From assembly GCA_038245295.1 (NCBI GenBank), contig JBBRSP010000046.1, forward strand, positions 1 through 33,025: DNA of 33,025 bases. Reading direction: 5' to 3'. A program made the translations under genes and the position numbers. The stretch is from Candidatus Binatia bacterium (GTDB lineage Bacteria > Desulfobacterota > Binatia > HRBIN30). The notes below the pieces were generated by a model. That model saw nothing but the letters and a program-made list of their open reading frames with translations, ran no database searches and was not told the origin of the DNA. Every line of letters starts with the position of its first letter. The first letter of the stretch is position 1. Below are positions 11,043-33,025 of the stretch, piece by piece.

Positions 11043-12521
11043 TCAGCAACGACTCAAACGATCGAGAATGTTGCGCGTGACGGCGTCAACATGCCGGTCG
11101 TCGAGGCCGTACGACCAATCCGTGCAACCACTACTTACGGTCGTGCCGCCATTCTGGAAGCTGCCAAGAATCGCATGACCGTACCGCAAACGTTCACAAC
11201 TCGCGGCGCTGTCGTCGCCGAGCAGCCGCTGCGCATGGAACTCCAACTCGTACTCGCCGCCCGGCGCCAGCGGCAGTTCCGTCGAATGCTTGTCGAAGGG
11301 CATCGCTGGTGCGCTTGCAACAATCTCGAAGGAGGCGGGGGTTCCATCGCGACCCGTCGCTACCGGTCGTCCGTCGAGCATCGTCACCTCGCAGCCATCA
11401 CATTCGTACCCAGCGACGAGCGGCGCGGCGCCCAGCACATCACCGAACGCGAGGCGGGTATTCTCGAACATCCAATGCTCCGGGCGATGGACCAGGTATC
11501 CGCCGCTGCCCAGCGGTACGCTGCTTGTGATGCGCGAGTAGCCGCCACGGGTGAACGAGGATCCGGTCAGGCGCGTTTCCGGACGACCGACCAGGGGATC
11601 GGACCATAAGGTCGTCACTCGTTGCGGACGCGACGCGTACAACGGATCCTCTCGGAAGCGATGCTTGAAGCACACCTGGCGAGCGTCCTCGAAACGGATC
11701 TGCCAGTACGACACGTTGCCAGAGAAGAACGCGGCATTGCCGCCGCCTGCGACGAACGACTCCACAGCATCGCGCATCTCCCACGACCAGTACTCGTCGT
11801 GCCCGACGCTGAGATAGAGAGCGTAACCGTCGAGCCGCTGCCGTCCGTGATGTAAGTCGGCACCACACGCGTAATCCAGCTCGTAGCCGTTGCGCTCGGC
11901 CCAGATGGCGAAGCGGCGCTCCCAGTTCGCCCAACCCGCCATGCCGTTCCACGGTGAGAGATCGTGGCGGCTGGTGAACATTACGTAGTCCTCGGCTCCC
12001 GTTCCCGGACGCACGCTCGCCAGGCGATGCCCCGCTTCGTCCGGCTTGTCGAGAAAGCCGCGGGCCAACGGTCGTTCAACCGACGTCGCCGTCGCCCCCG
12101 TGTAGTAATTGAGCCCGCCCATGTCGTTGTAGGCGTTCCACGTCGTCGTCGACAGCACCCAGAGGATCTTGCCGGTGCGTTCGGGTTTGGTACGCACAAC
12201 GAAGTAGGCCGTGCAGGCGTCCGCCCTTGTTGCCCCAGCACCGGTCAAGCGAACCAGGTACAGGCCGCTGGGCCAGTCGCTAGCAATGGGCACGCGCAAC
12301 GTCGCCGGCCAATCGAAGCCGCGTTCGAAGCCCGCCTCGGGAATCATCTGCGGCGCCGTGGCGACGGATGTCGCTCGCCAGACCACCTGCGGGTTGGCGC
12401 CGTCGCGCACCACTTCGATGTCGACGTGGGAGTCAGCTGCGGAGATGTGCAGGCTGACCACCTCGCCGGGTAAGACACTTTGTGGAATACAGTAGGCCAA
12501 GCTGGCAGCGCGATCCGACAT
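11043..12521 (-). CDS. N,N-dimethylformamidase large-subunit-like metalloamidase
   Basis: W-P-S-G-L-Y, YFVVR, TTWNAYN, SVGHDEYWS, GGNAAFFSGN..WQIRFE and GYECDG motifs resemble the DMFase beta-subunit C-terminal family. Start placed at ATG 12521 (MSDRAA) to avoid overlapping the divergent SDR. Confidence 0.8.
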   Translation of the reverse strand: MSDRAASLAYCIPQSVLPGEVVSLHISAADSHVDIEVVRDGANPQVVWRATSVATAPQMIPEAGFERGFDWPATLRVPIASDWPSGLYLVRLTGAGATRADACTAYFVVRTKPERTGKILWVLSTTTWNAYNDMGGLNYYTGATATSVERPLARGFLDKPDEAGHRLASVRPGTGAEDYVMFTSRHDLSPWNGMAGWANWERRFAIWAERNGYELDYACGADLHHGRQRLDGYALYLSVGHDEYWSWEMRDAVESFVAGGGNAAFFSGNVSYWQIRFEDARQVCFKHRFREDPLYASRPQRVTTLWSDPLVGRPETRLTGSSFTRGGYSRITSSVPLGSGGYLVHRPEHWMFENTRLAFGDVLGAAPLVAGYECDGCEVTMLDGRPVATGRDGTPASFEIVASAPAMPFDKHSTELPLAPGGEYELEFHAQRLLGDDSAASCERLRYGHAILGSFQNGGTTVSSGCTDWSYGLDDRHVDAVTRNILDRLSRC

Positions 12522-12627
12522 GGAGCACCGGTACAAACTGGATGCGCCGGACACAAGAGGCGCCGGGCCAGAGCTTCCCATCGACCACGCCAACCTGTTA
12601 ACCCAGGTCGGCGAAGGAGAGACAACC

Positions 12628-13473
12628 ATGGCCGCAGATCTCGACGGGCGCGTCGTTCTCATCACCGGGGCGAACACCGGCATCGGACGTGTCACCGCAA
12701 CCGAGTTGGCCGGCCGCGGCGCTCACGTCTTCCTGGCGTGCCGCTCAGCGGAGAAGGCCCAGCCCGTCCTCGACGAGATCAACAGCCGCGCCGGCATCAA
12801 GCGCGGCGCCGCAGCCGAGTTTCTGCCGCTCGACCTGACAGACCTCGCTTCGGTGCGGAACTGCGCCGCCCTCTTCCTCAAACGGAAACTGCCGCTCCAT
12901 ATCCTCATTAATAACGCCGGCCTAGCTGGGCAGCGTGGCCTGACCAAGGACGGCTTCGAGTTGGCTTTTGGCGTGAATCACCTCGGCCACTACCTTCTGA
13001 CCGAGCTGCTGCTGAAAACCCTGCGACGTAGCGCCCCAGCGCGTATCGTCATCGTCAGCAGCCGCGGTCACTATGATGCCAAGTCGATCGACTGGGACGC
13101 CTTACGCCAATCGACGCCGAGCATCACGGGGCTGAACGAATACGCGGTCTCCAAACTCTGCAACGTGTTGCACGGCAAGCGGTTGACCGAACGCCTCGAC
13201 GGCAGCGGCATCGAGGCGTTCTCGTTGCATCCGGGTGTCGTCGCCTCGGACGTCTGGCGCAGCGTGCCGTGGCCCTTCCGCTCGGTGATCAAACTCTTCA
13301 TGCTCTCCACGGAAGACGGAGCACGCACCTCGATCTACTGCGCCACCTCACCGGACGTCGCCGGCAAGAGCGGCGCTTATTTCGACGACTGTCGCGAACG
13401 CACCCCGAGTCAGCTCGCCTTGTCGAGCGAGCTGGCACACGAGCTGGAACGTCGCTGCAACGCTTGGCTGTGA
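12628..13473 (+). CDS. Short-chain dehydrogenase/reductase (retinol dehydrogenase/WWOX-like)
   Basis: ITGANTGIG, LINNAG, FGVNHLGH, RIVIVSS, YAVSK (YxxxK), LHPGVV; AGGAGA SD before ATG 12628. Confidence 0.93.
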   Translation: MAADLDGRVVLITGANTGIGRVTATELAGRGAHVFLACRSAEKAQPVLDEINSRAGIKRGAAAEFLPLDLTDLASVRNCAALFLKRKLPLHILINNAGLAGQRGLTKDGFELAFGVNHLGHYLLTELLLKTLRRSAPARIVIVSSRGHYDAKSIDWDALRQSTPSITGLNEYAVSKLCNVLHGKRLTERLDGSGIEAFSLHPGVVASDVWRSVPWPFRSVIKLFMLSTEDGARTSIYCATSPDVAGKSGAYFDDCRERTPSQLALSSELAHELERRCNAWL

Positions 13474-24933: not shown

Positions 24934-27048
24934 TCACGGACGCCAACTCTGGTTCACGTCGCCAAACAGCACGGCGACAAAGTCCTGGGCGGTCTGCTGA
25001 CCGGAGAGGGGTTCGTACATGATCCTACCCGGCTGGCAGTCCGCACTGCTGACGATCGGCTGCACCGGCCGGTGCGCCGGTGTCTGCAGGACTTTCGGAA
25101 CAAAGATCCATTTGGAGCCGCAGACATCGGCGACAGGGAGATTGGGGATGAGCCCAACACGGTATTGCAGCAGGAGCGCCGCATCGAGGGAGGTAAGCGT
25201 TCCGCTTCCATTCACGTCACCCGCCAACTGTTGTTCGGCAGTGCCCTGATCGAGATTCACCACGATGCGCAGGATGGCACTCGCGTCTATGGCAGAGATC
25301 GATCCATTCTCGCCAGCCGTATTCGATGCCGATAGCTGCCAAGTGCTGGTCGACAGTGCCGAGAAGGCAAACTGACCATCGAGGCCGGTGATGGCGCTGG
25401 ACGAACACGGGCCGTCGAGAGTCATGGTGACATCCGGCACGAGCACTCCGCTACCTTGGTAGCGCACCTGCCCGACCAAATCGCCGGCCAGTGTCGGCAC
25501 AGGCGTCAGTGTCGGGGTCACGGTTCGCGTCAGCGTCGGCGTGCGGGTTCCGCCGGTCGCCGTAAGAGTCGGCGTCCCAGTCACAGTTGATGAATTGGTC
25601 GGCAACGCCGTCGCCGTGGTCGTCGGCGTGTCGGTCGGCGTCCAGCTGACGATCGGGGTCAGAGTAACCGTGCCCGTTACGGTTCGGGTTGCTGTTACGG
25701 TGCGCGTCGCGGTTGCCGTGCGCGTCGCCGTCGACGTTCGTGTCACCGACGCCGTGCAGGTCGGGGTGAGGGTCGGGCCGCTGGTCGCGGTGTCGCTGGG
25801 CGTCACCGTCGCCGTCTGCGTGGACGTCGATGTCGACGTTGGAGAGGGAGTCGACGTGCCGCTCGGGGTGCTCGAGGGCGTGCCGGTTGGGGAGCGTGAT
25901 GGTGTCTGCGTCGGGGTGGACGTCGGCGTCGCTGTAAAAGTCTGCGTCGGCGTGTTCGTTGACGTCGACGTTGGTGTCCGTGTGGGTGTGAGCGTCGGCG
26001 TCTGGGTGATGGTCGGCGTCTGAGTAGGCGTGCGCGTTGGTGTGAGCGTTACGCTGGGTGTGTTGGTGATCGTGGGGGTTTGGGTCGGGGTCTGCGTCGA
26101 CGTGGGAGTTTCGGTCGGTGTCCGCGTCGTTGTCTGGGTAACGGTCGGGGTCTGCGTCGGAGTGCCCGTTGGCGTCGATGTCGGCGTCGATGTCGGCGTC
26201 TGCGTCGGCGTCCTGGTCGGCGTCGACGTGGGCGTCTCTGTCGGCGTGCTACTCGGCGTATCCGTAGGCGTGCGCGTTGGTGTCGCCGTCGCGGTGTTGG
26301 TTGCGGTTCCCGTGACGGAAGCGCTATTGGTCGGCGTCGACGACACCGTGGGCGTACTCGTCGGCGTGCTCGTGGCCACCGCCGGCGTATTTGTCGGTCC
26401 GCTGACGTTGATCGAACCGTTCGCTCCCGTGGTACCGGCGAACAACATACCGTTGATATCAAAGGCCTTAGGAGCGGGATTCAGCAACGGGTATGTCCCA
26501 CCGGCTGTCGTCGCAAGAATCAGGAAGTTGCAGGTCATCAGCGTCCCGTCGCCGGTGAGCTGCGTCGGTGTGGAAAAATTGAGCAGGCCGACGCGGGCGA
26601 CGTTGCATGGCGCGATGCCGGGGCCGGTGCAACTGGCGTCCGTGGTGCAACTCTGTTGGCCATTGCTGCACACCTTACCGGCTGAAAGGAAAAGCGGGGC
26701 CGGCGCGATCGCTGTGTTGAGCGTGCAGTCCGTCGCTGGGCTGATGCTGAATCGCGTGTTGTCGAACTGGATGTCGTTCTGCGTAGTGTAAATCGCATTG
26801 CCGTTGAGTACGACGGTCAATGGCACAGCGGCGCTGCCGCCTGCCATGCCGGTGGCGGAGCCGATGCTCACGACAGGCGGCGGCGGAGTAGCGGTCGGGG
26901 TCTTGGTTGGAGTCCGCGTCGCTGTGGACGTTGGTGTCGCTGTCAGCGCCAAGGCTGCCGGTGCGCCACCCATGAGGGCTGCCACGGCAAGACTGAGCGC
27001 AAGCGACCAAGCCACGGCCAGTCTAAGACTGCCGTGGCCCGATCGCAT
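24934..27048 (-). CDS. Secreted protein A: signal peptide, cohesin-like domain, Thr/Pro linker, carboxypeptidase-regulatory-like beta domain, dockerin-like module
   Basis: Signal peptide ending ALA. Cohesin-like domain ~26404-26874 ([29 protein letters not shown]...GTYPL, NGSINV). Dockerin-like ~25140-25314 ([17 protein letters not shown]...[23 protein letters not shown]), plus terminal FGDVNQSW. Confidence 0.8.
25492..26400 (-). repeat. Thr/Pro-rich (TPTx)n coding low-complexity linker, ~300 aa
   Basis: 12-bp-period degenerate repeats encoding [12 protein letters not shown] in gene A. Confidence 0.95.
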
Positions 27049-27138
27049 TCCTACTGATGCCCCAATAAGATAGATAAGCGTGATCCTACTCCCTCAACAG
27101 CCTCGGTTTGGCAGTGCTCCGCGCTCGTCTCCGTGTTG

Positions 27139-29133
27139 TCACGGATCATTGCAAACGAGACGCGTGAGCCCCTTCTGCCGACAGCCGATCCAAGGGGGAC
27201 CTGAAACGGCCACCGGAATATCGTCGCTGCGATCTGGTGGGCCCTGGTGCAAGACAACAGTGACTGGCCCGGCCGGCAGCACGAAGCCAGTTTCCCCGTC
27301 GCCAATCTGACGCCGGGAAATAGCCACCCTGTAAAGCTTCGGACTCGGTCGGACCCTGAAGGTGGCTCGGGTGTGGGTGAGCTTGTCATAACACCGCAGC
27401 GACCCGAGCCTACCGAATGTCTTGCATCCCGTGAGCGCGATCGTCGCGTGGAATTGGTTACTATCGGTTACGTCAAGAGTAATCGTCTGCGTCAGCAGCT
27501 GCATCGGCAGGGTTCCACCCGTGTCGTTGTCATTCAACGCCGCGCGCCGGATGATGACATAGCCGTTATCCCGGGGAACGGATTTGTCGATCTTCAGAGT
27601 CACCTTGTTCAACAGCCAGAGCAACGATGGTGTGCTGGTCGTGGTGGCTGTGACGGTGGGCGTAACTGTGCGTGTCGGCGTCGCCGTCCGGGTCGGCGTG
27701 TTGGTAGCCGTCGGGGTCGATGTAGATGTAGCGCTCGGGGTCGGCGTCGCCGTTCGGGTCGGCGTGTTCGTGGATGTCGGCGTCGACGTTGGCGTCACGG
27801 TCGGGGTCCGGGTCGGGGTTGATGTCGGCGTATCCGTCGCGGTCGGCGTCGCGGTGCGCGTCGGTGTCTGCGTCGGCGTCGACGTTGGGGTATTCGTGTG
27901 CGTCGAGGTTGGCGTCACAGTAGGCGTCTGAGTCGGCGTCGATGTCGGCGTCTGTGTCGACGTAGGCGTCTGGGTCGGCGTCTGCGTCGGCGTTCTTGTC
28001 GGTGTCGAGGTTGGTGTCTCTGTTGGTGTCTGCGTCGGCGTAGAGGTTGGCGTCTGGGTCGGCGTCTGCGTCGGGGTTCTTGTCGGCGTCGACGTTGGCG
28101 TCTCTGTCGGCGTCTGCGTCGGCGTAGAGGTTGGCGTCTGGGTCGGCGTCTGCGTCGGGGTTCTTGTCGGCGTCGATGTTGGCGTCTCTGTCGGCGTCTG
28201 CGTCGGCGTGCGGGTGATTGTCGGCGTCTGCGTCGGGGTCTGCGTTGGGGTCGACGTCGGGGTCTGGGTCGGGGTCTGCGTTGGTGTGTTGGTCGGTGTC
28301 GAGCTAGGAGTTCGCGTCGGGGTTTCCGTCGGGGTCTGCGTTGGCGTCGACGTCGGGGTCTGGGTTGGGGTATGGGTCGGTGTGCTGCTTGGTGTCGACG
28401 TGGGGGTTTGCGTTGGGGTCCGCGTCGGCGTGCTGGTGGGTAAGATCACCACGATGGAGCCGTTGGCTCCCGTGGTGCCGGCAAACAGGGCGCCGTTGAT
28501 ATCGAAGGCTTTCGGCACCGCATTCAGCAACGGGTACGTTCCAGCTGTCGTCGTCGGCAGAATGAGAAAGTTACAGGTCATCAGGGTCCCGTCGCTGGTG
28601 AGCTGCGTCGGCGTGGACAAGTTGATGAGGCCGACGCGGGCGATGTTGCATGGCGGGACGCCGGGGCCGGTACAGCCGGCATCGGTCGTACAGGTTTGCT
28701 GACCGTTGCTGCACACCTTGCCGGCCGAAAGCTGCAGCGGTGCGGGCGCAATCGTTGCGTTGAGTGTGCAGTCCGTCGCTGGAGTAATGCTGAAGCGCGT
28801 GTTGTCGAACTGGATGTCGTTCTGTGTCGTGTATATCGCATTGCCGTTGAGCGTTACCGTAACCGGCACAGCCGCGATGCCGCCCGGTCCGTTCGAATCG
28901 GATCCGACATTCAGGATGGGCGGCGTCGGTGTGTGTGTCGGCGTTGCGGTGACCGTTGGTGTCTGAGTCGTGGTCCGCGTTTGAGTCGGGGTACCCGCAG
29001 CAAAGACCGGCGGCGCGGCGGCAGCAGCGAGGATCAGCACGGCAGCAGCAGCGCTCAAACGCACCGGGAGCCAACGTCGAACCGTGCCATACGGCGATCG
29101 CCTTGTGATTGTTCTTGTGGCGCTGCGTGTCAT
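27139..29133 (-). CDS. Secreted protein B: signal peptide, cohesin-like domain, Thr/Pro linker, uncharacterised basic C-terminal domain
   Basis: GGAG SD 7 nt before ATG 29133; hydrophobic stretch ending VFA; cohesin-like domain 28447-28917, ~80% identical to that of protein A (126/157 by hand count); C-terminal ~160 aa domain with two Cys pairs. Confidence 0.8.
27631..28440 (-). repeat. Thr/Pro-rich (TPTx)n coding linker, ~270 aa, containing three 84-bp tandem copies (27957-28208)
   Basis: Copies starting at 28041 and 28125 differ at one base; the copy at 27957 is more diverged. Confidence 0.95.
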
Positions 29134-29332
29134 CTGCAACTCCATTTCCTTTGTTCGGCTGCGCCCCTGCGTCCGCGATCGCTTCACTGGCAATCTACGC
29201 GCAACGCTTTCGCAGCTCCCTTATGCTTCAAACTCTCTCGCCTCGCCCCGGGTTTGAGAACCGTCGCGCAGAGTCCCGGGCCACCAGCGGCCCGAGACCC
29301 CCACGGCAGACTCCGCGCCCGTCGGCATTCAC

Positions 29333-29812
29333 TTATCCACCGACCTTGACGGCACCGCTCTTGCGGCTCAGTCGGAAATCGTGTCCGGCGGCGTCGGACG
29401 CCGACGGGAGGTTGCGCAAGGCATAACGTCGTGGCCGCGCCGTCGCGGATACGTCGAACGTAACCGTCGCCACTTCGCCGTCCGGGATCGGGTTCTGGTT
29501 GAGCCCGAAGAGAATCACGCGCAGCACACCCGGGCTGGCTTCAGCGCATTGGACCATCTTGTCCGCGCTCCCGCTGGTGAGAGCCGCACCCGCGGCACAG
29601 CGCGGATTCGACAACGCCGCGGGATCGAAGTTGATGTCGGTCATCAGGGCCGTTGCCGCCGTTCCGCCACCTTGTTGGTAGCTGACCGGGACGCTCACGG
29701 ATTGACCCGCCTGGGCGGCAACGTGTGCGACCTCCAGTTCACCGGCCCAGACCTTCCCTGCACCGAGCATGACCAGCATGCCACTCAGTCCCCAAATCGC
29801 TCGTCGCGTCAT
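29333..29812 (-). CDS. Secreted protein C: stand-alone cohesin-domain protein
   Basis: AGAAGGAGA SD before ATG 29812; signal peptide ending VWA; cohesin pattern AGQSVSVPVS, DINFDP, GVLRVILFG, IPDGEVATVTFDVSATA, SGAVKV. Confidence 0.82.
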   Translation of the reverse strand: MTRRAIWGLSGMLVMLGAGKVWAGELEVAHVAAQAGQSVSVPVSYQQGGGTAATALMTDINFDPAALSNPRCAAGAALTSGSADKMVQCAEASPGVLRVILFGLNQNPIPDGEVATVTFDVSATARPRRYALRNLPSASDAAGHDFRLSRKSGAVKVGG

Positions 29813-29856
29813 CGTCAGTCTCCTTCTTGCGCGCTGGAGGCAGATGTGTCGGTTCG

Positions 29857-32800
29857 TCATTGGCATTCACCTGTTGGGTCGTCGCCGAGGAAGCGATTGA
29901 TCGCCTGTTGCACCTCGCCGATGGTGATCTTGCCGTTCAGATCGGAGTCGCCGGCCGGACAGCTCCTGATTGGGACACTGATGTTGCACAGGGGCTTGCC
30001 GCCGGGCAGTTGGAGGATCTGTACGAGCTTGAAGATCTCGCCGACGTCGACTCCGCCGTCCGCGTTGCAGTCGCCGGTGCAGGTCGTGAGATGGACCTGC
30101 GTCGCCGAGCCGCCGGCGCCCAGGATGTCAGCACCACCCGGGGTGGAAGCCTGGAAGTTCTGGTTGGTCAGCTGGTAGGTTCCAACCGGTGAACCGACCG
30201 GGATGCTGACATTGCATTCGTAGAGAGTGCTGTCCGGCATCGCCAGGTTGGACGGGAAGCCCAGGACGGCAACACTCTGGGTTGCGCCCGGACCGATCGG
30301 CACGCTGGAGATGCTCTTGTTATTTGCGGGGTTGACGACACAGGTGCCCACCGAGAATGGCGTCGCCGGGAACCCGACCTCGTTGACGGTCGAACTGACG
30401 GGGTTGCCGTTCGCGGTCAGCGTCGTGAACAAGCAGGCCAGGCCGCCGGGTCGACCGACAGGTACCGGGACCGACGCATTGACCTGGTCGATGGCTGGAC
30501 AGGTCGGGCAGACCTCGTTTTGACACGTGGCCGAACAACCGTCGCCACCGATGATGCCGCCGTCGTCGCACTGCTCGCCAGCTTCGATGGTGCCATTGCC
30601 ACAGACCGATGCAGCGAAGTTTAGGGTGGCGTCCTGCGTCAGGACCGTGAAGAGCACGTCCCCGTTGGTCATGAGCACCCGATCCTTGAGGCACGGGTAC
30701 GGTGAGGCCGTCGGGCTCGTGCTGTTGCACGCAGCCACCAGGACGTTGTCGTTGAACACCTGGATCTTGAACGGATTCGCACCCATCAGGATCGAGGCAT
30801 CGACGGTGAGGTTGACGATCAGCGGGTTGCTGGCCGATGCCGTCGGGCTGGTTGCCGAGGACACGTCGCTTTGCGCCGCCAAGGAGCTGTACCCGGCGCT
30901 CACAACGGTTCCATTGTTCTCGGTGATGCTGATCGTTCCGGTGCTGGCTATCGGGCAAGTAACCGAGGTGACCAACGTATGAGCCGGCGTGGCCCCGTTG
31001 CCGTCATCCGTGGTGACGACGCCGCCATCACAGATGCTGCAATCGCCGGTATGTACGCAACCTACGCCGACCTGGCAGATGTCATCCGTACACGTCACCG
31101 CGTCGCTGCAAACGGCGTCGACCGGAGCGTGCTGACAACCTGTCATCGCGTCGCACGAATCGTTGGTGCAACCGATGCTGTCGTTGCAGTTCAGCGCTGC
31201 TCCTGAGGTGCAGATGGCGCTCTGACAGGTCTCGTGCCCGTTGCACACGGTACTGTCATCGCAGGCGCTGCCATCGACCTTCTTGATGTCGGCCGGGCAT
31301 GCATTCGTCGAGCCATCACATGTGTCGGCCAGGTCGCAGTTGTCGGCGGCCGTGCGGCACACATGGGTTGAAGGTTGTTTGGCGTCTGTCGGACAATCCG
31401 CGGCGCTGCCGGTGCAGTTTTCGGCAACGTCACAGACGCCGCTGACGCCGCGGCACTCGGTGGCCGCCGACTGGAAGACATCGATTGGGCATGCAGCGCT
31501 GCCACCCGTGCATACCTCGGCCACGTCACACACACCGGCCGTGGCACGGCACTCGGTGCCGCTGGCGACGAACCCGTCGGTCGGACACGCCTGGTCGGCA
31601 ACGCCCGTGCAGTTCTCGGCCACATCACAGAGGTCAGCCACGGGGCGGCACGTTGTCGATGCCGGTGCGATCACGTCTGGCGGACAGCCGGCGCTGCTAC
31701 CCGTGCAATGCTCGTCCGGATCACACAGATCACCGGAGCCGGGGTTGCAGACCGTTGTGCTCGGGACGAACGCGTCAGCCGGGCAGTTATCGGTGGAGCC
31801 GTCGCAGTGGTCATCCAGGTCACAGATGCCCGCTGATGGCCTACAGACGGCCGAGCTCGGCTTTTTGGCGTCTGGCGGACATGGGTTGGTCACGCCGTCG
31901 CACTTGTCGGCGGCATCACAGTCGCCGACTGAGGCACGACAGGTGAACGTGGTCGGCTGTTTCGAGTCTGCCGGGCAGCTGTTGCCGCCGTCGCAGCTCT
32001 CGGCAACATCGCACGGTGCGTTTTCGTTACGCTGCGAGTTGTCGATGGCCAGGAACGGGAAGTGGCTGTAGACGATCCAACCGTAGCGATTGCCACCTAC
32101 CGTCGTACCAATGATGTCGCTCGGGTCGCTGAGCGTCCAAGTGTGCAGCGGCGTGCCCGACGCATCGCGCAGGATGAAGTCGACCTTCAGCAGGCCGGCG
32201 CCACCATCGTAGTAGTGATGCGAGAACGTGTACCAACCGCTGCTGGTCACCGCGAACGGGTCGTTACCCGGGTTCTTCGGCCAGCCTGGCGAGTTGTTTC
32301 CCGCCGAGATCACGAAGCGCGGACCGCTGCCGGTCACATCGGAGTCGTCGTAGAAGCCGACGCTGTAGATGTAGTCGCGACGGAAGTCGGCCTTGCAGGT
32401 CTCGCCCATCGGGCAGTCGCCATTGGTTGTGCACGACGTGGCGTTGGTAACGCTGCAGTGTGCCGCCGCGTCGCTGATGGCCGAGTCGTAGTCGAAGCGT
32501 GTATCGTTGGCATACGCACCGCCGACGTTCAGGTAGATGTCGGTTGAGGTGGTGAAGCCGTCGGCTGGGAACAAGTGGTTGTAGCCGCCGAAGCGGGTGA
32601 ACGGTCCATCGGGGCCACCCATGGCATCGGTCTCGGCGAACGGCACCTCGGCGTGGAACTCGCCGCTCTTCGAGGTGATTCCGTGGGTACCGGACGCGAC
32701 CCGAGCGATATCGTTCGGGGCGCTGTTGAACCAGCCGGTCAAGTCGACCTCGAAGCCGGCAAAGAACTGGGAGCCGACTGGGCGACAGACGCTGTCGCTC

Positions 32801-33025
32801 TTGGCATCCGACGGACACGCAACGCCCCCACCCGTGCAGTTCTCGGCCGGATCGCAATTGCCGGCTGAGGCACGACATTCGGAGGTCGACGGCTGGTAGC
32901 CATCGGTCGGGCAAGCGGCCGCGCTGCCAGTGCAGTTTTCGGCCACGTCACAGGTGCCGGCTACAGCACGGCACTCGGTGGCCGCTGATTTGAAGACATC
33001 GCCTGGGCAAGCTGCGCTGCTGCCA
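29857..33025 (-). CDS. Large Cys-rich surface protein D (5' end beyond window): disintegrin-like repeats, inserted beta domain, myxobacterial Cys-rich repeat, cohesin-like domain, C-terminal dockerin-like module
   Basis: Frame is open to the window edge (GSSAACPGDVFKSAATECRAVAGTCDVAENC...). Ten complete ~32-aa CR-x5-CD-x-(A/D)(E/D)-x-C(T/D)G-x4-CP-x-D units (31264-33025); CNDSIGCTNDSC-type repeats; CGNGTIEAGEQCDDG..DGCSATCQ (30520-30603); cohesin-like 30088-30483; dockerin-like GDCNADGGVDVGE / GDSDLNGKITIGE (29860-30081). Confidence 0.85.
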   Translation of the reverse strand, partial: GSSAACPGDVFKSAATECRAVAGTCDVAENCTGSAAACPTDGYQPSTSECRASAGNCDPAENCTGGGVACPSDAKSDSVCRPVGSQFFAGFEVDLTGWFNSAPNDIARVASGTHGITSKSGEFHAEVPFAETDAMGGPDGPFTRFGGYNHLFPADGFTTSTDIYLNVGGAYANDTRFDYDSAISDAAAHCSVTNATSCTTNGDCPMGETCKADFRRDYIYSVGFYDDSDVTGSGPRFVISAGNNSPGWPKNPGNDPFAVTSSGWYTFSHHYYDGGAGLLKVDFILRDASGTPLHTWTLSDPSDIIGTTVGGNRYGWIVYSHFPFLAIDNSQRNENAPCDVAESCDGGNSCPADSKQPTTFTCRASVGDCDAADKCDGVTNPCPPDAKKPSSAVCRPSAGICDLDDHCDGSTDNCPADAFVPSTTVCNPGSGDLCDPDEHCTGSSAGCPPDVIAPASTTCRPVADLCDVAENCTGVADQACPTDGFVASGTECRATAGVCDVAEVCTGGSAACPIDVFQSAATECRGVSGVCDVAENCTGSAADCPTDAKQPSTHVCRTAADNCDLADTCDGSTNACPADIKKVDGSACDDSTVCNGHETCQSAICTSGAALNCNDSIGCTNDSCDAMTGCQHAPVDAVCSDAVTCTDDICQVGVGCVHTGDCSICDGGVVTTDDGNGATPAHTLVTSVTCPIASTGTISITENNGTVVSAGYSSLAAQSDVSSATSPTASASNPLIVNLTVDASILMGANPFKIQVFNDNVLVAACNSTSPTASPYPCLKDRVLMTNGDVLFTVLTQDATLNFAASVCGNGTIEAGEQCDDGGIIGGDGCSATCQNEVCPTCPAIDQVNASVPVPVGRPGGLACLFTTLTANGNPVSSTVNEVGFPATPFSVGTCVVNPANNKSISSVPIGPGATQSVAVLGFPSNLAMPDSTLYECNVSIPVGSPVGTYQLTNQNFQASTPGGADILGAGGSATQVHLTTCTGDCNADGGVDVGEIFKLVQILQLPGGKPLCNISVPIRSCPAGDSDLNGKITIGEVQQAINRFLGDDPTGECQ

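Follow-up and report, generated by a model that had tools for sequence, protein, structure and literature searches.

Results

A four-gene cohesin locus

The 33,025-nucleotide stretch of DNA analysed here (hereafter the window) is the entire contig C46 (JBBRSP010000046.1) of the 6.63-Mb, 96.6% complete genome of a Candidatus Binatia bacterium (GCA_038245295.1; G000). Four open reading frames (ORFs), all on the minus strand and in the order D-C-B-A, occupy positions 24934-33025, and ORF calls together with profile matches bear out the initial annotation of this DNA, in which four co-oriented genes each encode a cohesin. We describe here the modules of the four proteins and the genome-wide set of cohesins and dockerins of which they are probably a part, including OmcA/MtrC-type cytochromes on which a dockerin alternates with a lipid-anchor signal.

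Gene D (29857..33025, minus strand) is open at its 5′ end, and the window holds only the 3′ part of the gene, encoding more than 1055 residues. Gene C (29333..29866, minus strand; start backed by a ribosome-binding site (RBS) at 29812) encodes a signal peptide and a lone cohesin. Gene B (27139..29193, minus strand; RBS-backed start at 29145) encodes a signal peptide, a cohesin, a Thr/Pro linker and a basic C-terminal domain, the layout originally proposed for it. Gene A (24934..27048, minus strand) encodes a signal peptide, a cohesin, a Thr/Pro/Ser linker and a CnaB-like domain with an inserted dockerin. For genes A, B and C the signal peptide was read by eye only. D and C overlap or are 44 nucleotides apart, and gaps of 187 and 90 nucleotides separate C from B and B from A, respectively. 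The gene 3′ of A is convergent and the gene 5′ of D, on contig C62, is divergent, so D-C-B-A form a closed run of four if the C62 join described below is correct. A promoter and terminator scan of the locus gave matches at chance level only. LptF/G are encoded within the window (Pfam), in agreement with the lipopolysaccharide-bearing host suggested earlier. No Pfam or NCBIfam enzyme match was found in the proteins of the four genes, and only in this sense does the earlier claim that they lack enzyme domains hold, a 250-residue domain of D being uncharacterised.

The four cohesins

The cohesin of C (29342-29734, minus strand) passes the Pfam Cohesin model (PF00963) with 35.6 bits against a cut-off of 24.1, confirming C as a lone cohesin. 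Compared with the PDB, the profile of the C family gave 25 matches (best E 1.4e-12), all of them named or presumed cohesin-type entries. The cohesin of A (26404-26868, minus strand) reaches the Pfam cut-off only together with its frame neighbours. A hidden Markov model (HMM) of cohesins built from this genome recognises it with an E value of 1.7e-31 and that of B (28447-28911, minus strand) with 7.7e-31; the two cohesins are about 80% identical, and genes A and B share 72% DNA identity over 977 bp. The cohesin of D (30088..30474, minus strand) is divergent (HMM E 1.2e-9) and aligns to the profile of the C family at 97.9% by hhalign. In a reversed-ORF control none of our three HMMs gave a match at E<1e-3. 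At one strand position, which we take to be that of the dockerin-contact Asp, 46 of 53 cohesins have retained an acidic residue. As judged from these profile matches, all four cohesins are genuine. A complex prediction for the cohesin of C with the dockerin of D, both entered as alignments, scored 0.21 against a mark of 0.32 and speaks neither for nor against their pairing.

Two classes of dockerin

The dockerin of A passes Pfam PF00404 with 29.9 bits against a cut-off of 22.9. It is inserted (25129-25320) into a C-terminal CnaB/transthyretin-like sandwich (24937..25494, minus strand), and the fold of the last 186 residues of A is predicted with a pLDDT of 95.3. The sandwich aligns with CnaB/transthyretin-like folds (Z 7.3, root-mean-square deviation (rmsd) 2.5, 94 residues aligned), and in the alignments to CnaB, which stretch across model residues 1-178, about 90 residues are aligned. 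The dockerin is modelled as three helices and is matched by Foldseek to 4uyp_B (prob 1.00, TM(target) 0.73, rmsd 2.2 over 61 columns, E 0.01); it is nearest to the ScaB adaptor dockerin of Acetivibrio cellulolyticus (profile E 9.5e-11). Only the second of its Ca loops (25183-25221) is intact, the first lacking its N-terminal half throughout a 29-row alignment. A-type modules also carry an invariant C-terminal Gly-Asp (24943-24963 in A), which, to go by sequence and topology, may complete the first loop and thereby make it a split loop. The picture of A as ending in a dockerin with a duplicated motif is consequently replaced by one of an internal dockerin, within a CnaB-like domain, with a single intact loop. 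We rejected a type II X-module/dockerin dyad as a description of this region. In such a dyad a separate beta-sandwich X module precedes the dockerin; here the sandwich wraps the dockerin, and 5k39_B aligns poorly (rmsd 11.9).

As a side observation, an Arg-rich, weakly cohesin-like tail of about 120 residues (hhalign 54%; L004, L005, L022, L023, L033, L172-L184) often comes directly after the CnaB-dockerin module in proteins of the A type; it is absent from A itself.

The dockerin-like module of D (29869..30093, minus strand) belongs to a Cys-containing Binatia type and is recognised by the genome-built HMM with an E value of 1.3e-15. It has two intact 12-residue Ca loops, at 30037-30075 and 29914-29952, whose positions 10/11 read VG and IG as against the (V/I)D usual in the family. 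Among the 144 D-type family members of this genome, 108 fit the two-loop 12-residue pattern, a spacing of 32 residues separating the two loops in 87 of the 108, and at least four Cys are present in 108 of the 144 modules. The dockerins of A and D belong to separate classes and do not share their residues at loop positions 10/11. These are the specificity positions of dockerins, and chaining of A and D is accordingly not expected by default; the head-to-tail chaining once suggested for them is unsupported.

The remainder of gene D

The part of D within the window encodes, in order, a Cys-repeat stalk, a conserved domain of 250 residues, a second Cys stalk, a domain of 140 residues, a Cys-rich acidic repeat, the cohesin and the dockerin. 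The stalk, cohesin and dockerin had been recognised from the outset; the 250- and 140-residue domains had been missed. The former, which we call the passenger domain (32020..32772, minus strand; 251 residues), has many invariant D/G/W/Y residues and 235 homologues. Neither Pfam nor the PDB assigned it to a family, and leads in the Atlas (DUF6645/DUF6772) have low shared counts. Its homologues pair it with T9SS (type IX secretion system), FlgD-Ig, PEP-CTERM, CnaB-dockerin/cohesin or B-type C-terminal domains. An A-type CnaB-dockerin is present in 26 of the 120 homologues listed, most of them annotated with a cohesin in the same chain. The 140-residue domain has no paralogue in the genome. Disintegrin matches in D were read as Cys-repeat likeness.

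Contig C62 ends in 95 bp that are identical to the start of D, the sole such overlap in the genome, and D's N-terminus is therefore probably located there (G000:C62:10235-11312), where the putative 5′ part encodes a signal peptide (by eye), a domain of about 150 residues and Cys repeats. The junction between C62 and C46 falls in a collapsed repeat of about three times single-copy depth, measured in a run that is possibly the genome's own source, and the length of D is for that reason uncertain; aligned contigs neither confirmed nor contradicted the join. A reading of the N-terminal domain as resembling a carbohydrate-binding module (CBM) was prompted by a motif only. Pfam, PDB and homologue searches gave nothing for it, and we do not claim it.

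The C-terminal domain of B and its link to D

The C-terminal domain of B (BCT; 27142..27621, minus strand) is a basic, four-Cys, mainly beta domain of an undescribed family. A profile search found 645 protein clusters at E<=0.001, where a word-index search found none. Among the best 150 of the 645, the domain stands at the extreme C-terminus in 141 and is basic in 127. The four Cys are invariant, and the mainly beta fold is predicted with a pLDDT of 94.8. BCT has no Pfam or NCBIfam match, falls in unnamed clusters only in the Atlas, and scores 0.3% against cohesin by hhalign. It was found in 22 of 121 genomes of the class.

Two lines of evidence bear on what BCT might do. First, in protein P0070 (= G007:C163) a stalk and passenger like those of D (47% identity over 614 columns; E 5e-150) are fused to a BCT, with no cohesin and no dockerin; its BCT is 46% identical to that of B and was the nearest among the 32 first collected, the closer P0180, found later, having no passenger match. 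P0181 is a second fusion of passenger and BCT. Second, six other proteins among the best 150 of the 645 join a cohesin to BCT, three of them with a dockerin as well. The fusion of passenger and BCT in P0070 and P0181 suggests that the dockerin of D and the cohesin of B bridge what is one chain elsewhere, and B thus likely tethers D, as far as fusions can indicate. Neither a membrane helix nor a sorting tag was seen in B, so any anchoring would be non-covalent. The proposal that B is an anchor gains from the passenger-BCT and cohesin-BCT fusions; recognisable membrane-anchor signals are instead carried by scaffoldins elsewhere in the genome.

Some further observations concern BCT-like proteins. 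In several genomes (L144, L151, L152, L142/L163) the gene for a large BCT-ended protein precedes a short gene that encodes BCT on its own behind an apparent signal peptide, and 56 matches among the best 150 of the 645 are at most 260 residues long, some being fragments. Separately, secreted proteins at L130:1261-5169 and L131:15951-17234 share a C-terminal domain (37% identical) that has no family match.

A genome-wide set of cohesins and dockerins

Using HMMs seeded from Pfam hits we took a census of 62,861 six-frame ORFs of the genome. It revealed 144 D-type and 15 A-type dockerins (159 in all) in 157 ORFs and 37 cohesins in 23 ORFs, which substantiates the expectation that dockerin-tagged proteins are encoded elsewhere in the genome. 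Both modules occur in 14 ORFs, and five ORFs away from the window locus hold 6, 5, 3, 3 and 2 cohesins.

We scanned 165 ORFs with Pfam (cut-offs 1e-5 and 1e-6), leaving out the window genes and adding four borderline cases. No Pfam family was found in 89 of the 165. The recognisable cargo includes many beta-propellers and beta-helices, six peptidases, two MtrC-like cytochromes, MbnH/MbnP, two GSDH-type propellers, two esterases, one heparinase-like protein and only two glycoside hydrolases (GHs), of families GH10 and GH44. CBM3 and GH9 were not found in this genome, with control searches positive; a search for GH48 gave no match, the control genomes being equally silent. The early description of the set as non-cellulosomal fits this census well.

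Candidate anchors are encoded outside the window. The protein at C11:89684 combines a cohesin with a MYXO-CTERM tag scoring above cut-off, those at C12:33301 and C21:55310 have MYXO-CTERM-like tails below cut-off, and that at C31:68228-72184 (L086:6229-10185) carries five cohesins, CHRD domains and a lipobox read by eye. A, B, C and D have no match to the MYXO-CTERM model TIGR03901. A GspD protein (TIGR02517, 485.9 against a cut-off of 351) is encoded within an operon resembling that of a type II secretion system (T2SS).

Several gene arrangements were seen alongside these. At C11:82714-91207 (L038:2715-11208) a cohesin-cohesin-dockerin gene is followed by a propeller-dockerin-cohesin-dockerin gene adjoining that for the MYXO-CTERM cohesin protein. 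A second four-gene cluster, at C21:55310-64205 (L036:5311-14206), encodes a dockerin-cohesin protein with the MYXO-CTERM-like tail, a six-cohesin scaffoldin, a cohesin-dockerin protein and A's closest paralogue, whose C-terminal module is 80% identical to that of A; the C-terminal region of A is 74% identical to a gene on this contig. Cohesin matches spanning stop codons at C18:39011-39424 and C4:139330-139734 are possibly split or broken scaffoldin genes. At C15:108127-110481 (L068:17212-19566) adjacent MbnP and MbnH both have dockerin-like modules, that of MbnP amounting to only about half of one.

Dockerin or lipobox on decaheme cytochromes

Cytochromes of the OmcA/MtrC family are encoded by 35 of the 52 genomes that represent the order, and in this genome one such decaheme cytochrome has an N-terminal dockerin (G000:C5:218779-221448; L093:4-2673). 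We examined 30 OmcA/MtrC loci (L219-L248) of the 45 matches listed. Twenty have a lipoprotein signal at their start (recognised by pattern in 19, by eye in one) and no dockerin; in the other ten a signal peptide is followed directly by a dockerin, with no lipobox. Dockerin and lipobox are mutually exclusive across all 30. The label changes four times on a quick tree, at least two of these changes being forced by well-supported branches, and the ten dockerin-bearing cytochromes all come from one family, six of them forming one clade. Since a dockerin or a lipobox is present and never both, the dockerin likely does the lipid anchor's job, and we consider it likely, from sequence, that it replaces that anchor on cytochromes of the OmcA/MtrC type. 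This alternation is the best functional clue that we have. It leaves the dockerin's partner putative, a cohesin being the candidate that it does not itself identify.

Distribution

At E<=1e-12 for the D-type dockerin and E<=1e-10 for the cohesin, D-type dockerins were detected in 18 and cohesins in 20 of one sample of 121 class genomes, all 18 falling within the 20. Sixteen of the 18 are the sampled members of this order, and 13 of these 16 (12 of the 15 relatives) have at least 50 D-type matches. A synteny scan of genome contigs for the window locus gave only two Bryobacterales matches, at 33%, and a metagenome scan gave none. Cohesin proteins of Bryobacterales (L001:9791-10996, L002:9914-11035) lie beside genes that by eye appear to be for exopolysaccharide. 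Elsewhere in the window, a protein resembling the N,N-dimethylformamidase beta subunit (11043-12695) adjoins a tig-clpP-clpX-lon run. The ClpX protein belongs to a 90% cluster in which the members with names are metagenome-assembled genomes of Deltaproteobacteria and one 'Candidatus Binatia bacterium'.

Discussion

A probable surface-display set with a local variant

The reading that we favour, and hold to be probable with real room for doubt, is that the modular and likely secreted proteins of these four genes are one lineage-specific portion of a cohesin-dockerin set that extends over the order, is non-cellulolytic and likely serves surface display. In such a system the proteins would be exported via Sec and the T2SS, scaffoldins with MYXO-CTERM or lipoprotein signals would be placed on the outer membrane, and cargo would be plugged into their cohesins by way of Ca-loaded dockerins. 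D would be a long adhesin-like passenger combined with an adaptor, its dockerin binding the cohesin of B or the near-twin in A. B could then hold D on the surface or matrix through BCT, non-covalently restoring the fusion that is seen as one polypeptide in relatives. A would act as a class-switching adaptor and C as a free monovalent cohesin.

Several observations weigh against this reading. No D-C-B-A cluster was found in relatives; among the order's 51 other genomes, one encodes the passenger of D and three encode close A/B-type cohesins, set in different architectures; and the two proteins most closely related to C (46-49%) are stand-alone basic cohesins, one of them 1.3 kb from a contig end. 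The notion that the four genes make up a dedicated system, conserved as such, is therefore not sustained, the more so with anchored scaffoldins encoded elsewhere. The co-occurrence of dockerins and cohesins is mostly that of one clade, whose members are kin and not independent and from which the profiles themselves were built. The link from D to B rests on two fusion proteins, the binding role of BCT is predicted, and the best fold match of BCT (VIA Z 5.8, rmsd 4.4, 129 aligned) is to an archaellin, with no Foldseek match at E<=0.001. The myxosortase-family protease (NF040914) scores 100.6 against a cut-off of 100, a bare pass. MbnH and MbnP are a periplasmic pair in methanotrophs, and dockerins on them suggest that docking may not always take place at the outer surface. 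Finally, the two intact loops of D's module agree with the duplicated Ca-loop ending first described, the module has no Pfam Dockerin_1 (PF00404) match, and the profile of the D-type family matches PDB entries weakly, mostly generic EF-hands with one dockerin among 45; 'dockerin-like' is thus the safe label.

The most serious alternative accepts a real genome-wide system and takes the four genes for a recent shuffle of modules that do not cooperate, with a duplicated cohesin common to A and B and each protein plugging separately into partners elsewhere. The absence of synteny in our scans would be explained by this, as would the likeness of A to B over 977 bp, the 74% identity of A's C-terminal region to a C21 gene, and the 187-nucleotide gap between C and B. 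Against it, D and C abut or overlap, the four genes form a closed run, and the fusions of passenger with BCT connect D and B; we regard a mere shuffle as unlikely.

Next comes the possibility that cohesin and dockerin act mainly within one chain or between copies of it, giving a self-polymerising adhesive mesh, as the initial annotation proposed, or an S-layer-like coat. Fourteen ORFs carry both modules, which in D are directly adjacent; the 26 of 120 listed passenger homologues with an A-type CnaB-dockerin mostly have a cohesin in the same chain, A-type modules often have the basic, weakly cohesin-like tail, and cohesin/dockerin proteins of syntrophic sulfate-reducing bacteria (SRB) are treated as adhesins in the available text of PMC10553843. 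By contrast, 143 of the 157 dockerin ORFs have no cohesin by HMM (the weak tail is present in seven of the 143), there are multi-cohesin proteins with anchors, a dockerin stands in for the lipobox on cytochromes, and the dockerins of A and D differ in class. A mesh accordingly seems to us rather unlikely.

A third alternative, which we think improbable, makes the D-type module a disulfide-stabilised, Ca-binding EF-hand pair that serves as a secretion or surface tag with a non-cohesin target, the cohesins being mere spacers. It draws on the weak and mixed PDB matches of the D-type profile, on the four or more Cys in most copies, which cellulosomal dockerins mostly lack, and on cohesin proteins that carry no dockerin. 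It fits poorly with the co-distribution of dockerins with cohesins, with the recurrence of genes and gene clusters that combine the two modules, with the anchored multi-cohesin proteins, with the 32-residue spacing in 87 of 108 two-loop copies, and with the acidic residue kept in 46 of 53 cohesins; several D-type members, moreover, pass Pfam Dockerin_1.

That the locus belongs to a true cellulosome with its enzymes elsewhere can be virtually dismissed: the genome does satisfy the minimal screen of Minor et al., as given in the available text of PMC11557425 (one dockerin-GH plus one multi-cohesin protein), through its dockerin-bearing GH10 and GH44 and its multi-cohesin proteins, yet two GHs among 165 scanned ORFs already contradict the idea and CBM3 and GH9 were not found where controls were positive.

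Beyond the surface-display reading of the locus we offer a wider proposal, tentatively and judging it somewhat more likely wrong than right. One order of Binatia may use cohesin-dockerin pairing as a general display platform, with dozens to more than 100 secreted proteins per genome on MYXO-CTERM or lipoprotein scaffoldins. On decaheme cytochromes of the outer surface a dockerin would have taken over from the lipid anchor at least twice, and the resulting arrays, similar to cellulosomes, would serve electron transfer, proteolysis and adhesion. To this the locus would add two undescribed parts, a split-loop, CnaB-nested dockerin and a BCT tether to which a passenger is joined either by fusion or via a cohesin-dockerin bridge.

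The scale of the set rivals that of large cellulosomes, yet there are almost no cellulases, and the cytochrome swap makes a direct, testable functional statement, that of the dockerin as a tether. If the wider proposal is true, an uncultured group builds modular surface arrays, possibly including electron-transfer proteins, and offers new Cys-stabilised cohesin-dockerin pairs as well as a Gram-negative means of anchoring in engineered display. As a local variant, the four-gene locus is less important than the wider system. Many genomes are known to encode non-cellulosomal cohesins and dockerins, mostly uncharacterised in function. In the literature searched, with supplements and most subscription papers outside the search, we found neither the scale, the cytochrome anchor swap, BCT and the nested dockerin nor any publication on Binatota dockerins or Binatia cohesins.

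Comparison with known systems

Sorting by MYXO-CTERM and myxosortase is among the closest known parallels. In Myxococcus xanthus, according to the main text of PMC11980579, myxosortase cleaves MYXO-CTERM proteins, which reach the surface via the T2SS. The tag, the protease family and a T2SS are likewise present in this genome (compare the main texts of PMC11980579 and 10.1101/2023.06.07.544157), the tag being absent from all four window genes. Neither main text names Binatia or Binatota, and that of 10.1101/2023.06.07.544157 mentions no cohesin or dockerin.

Two groups of non-cellulosomal sets are comparable in kind. Those of anaerobic methanotrophic (ANME) archaea (PMC9012536) and syntrophic SRB (PMC10553843), as presented in the available parts of these papers, resemble ours in having scaffoldins with up to five cohesins plus a dockerin, cargo other than carbohydrate-active enzymes, a proposed surface attachment and predicted pairings. 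The ANME cargo named includes ABC-type binding proteins and S-layer domains (PMC9012536, same parts), whereas here it comprises propellers, peptidases, decaheme cytochromes and MbnH/MbnP, and a T2SS and a myxosortase-family protease are present in the genome. The 'Planctosome' of Nemodlikiaceae (PMC6461901) and the Stygibacter complex of Cloacimonadota (PMC8542988) are, in the text available, likewise genome-inferred bacterial scaffolds, for peptidases, with an anchor and adaptor architecture and a C-terminal domain proposed for attachment. They involve a handful of proteins, in contrast to the order-wide expansion, several anchor types and redox cargo seen here.

With the complex cellulosomes of Acetivibrio cellulolyticus and Ruminococcus flavefaciens, which comprise scaffoldins of the adaptor, anchoring and monovalent kinds, the set has module families in common, as the PDB matches of the cohesins and the likeness of the A-type dockerin to ScaB (4uyp_B) attest. 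In scale, the 157 dockerin ORFs found here compare with 206 in P. cellulosolvens, a figure from the available text of a RefSeq survey (PMC11557425). That survey, whose main text contains no word starting with 'Binat', reports that dockerin numbers track those of dockerin-GHs near-linearly, a relation from which this genome departs. Complex cellulosomes are anchored by domains of S-layer homology (SLH) or by sortase; in this diderm host the anchors are MYXO-CTERM-like, lipoprotein or possibly BCT. There is almost no GH cargo, the modules are Cys-rich, and a dockerin is inserted within a CnaB-like fold. The set is a cellulosome-like scaffold, its docking predicted, that is set apart from cellulosomes by its cargo.

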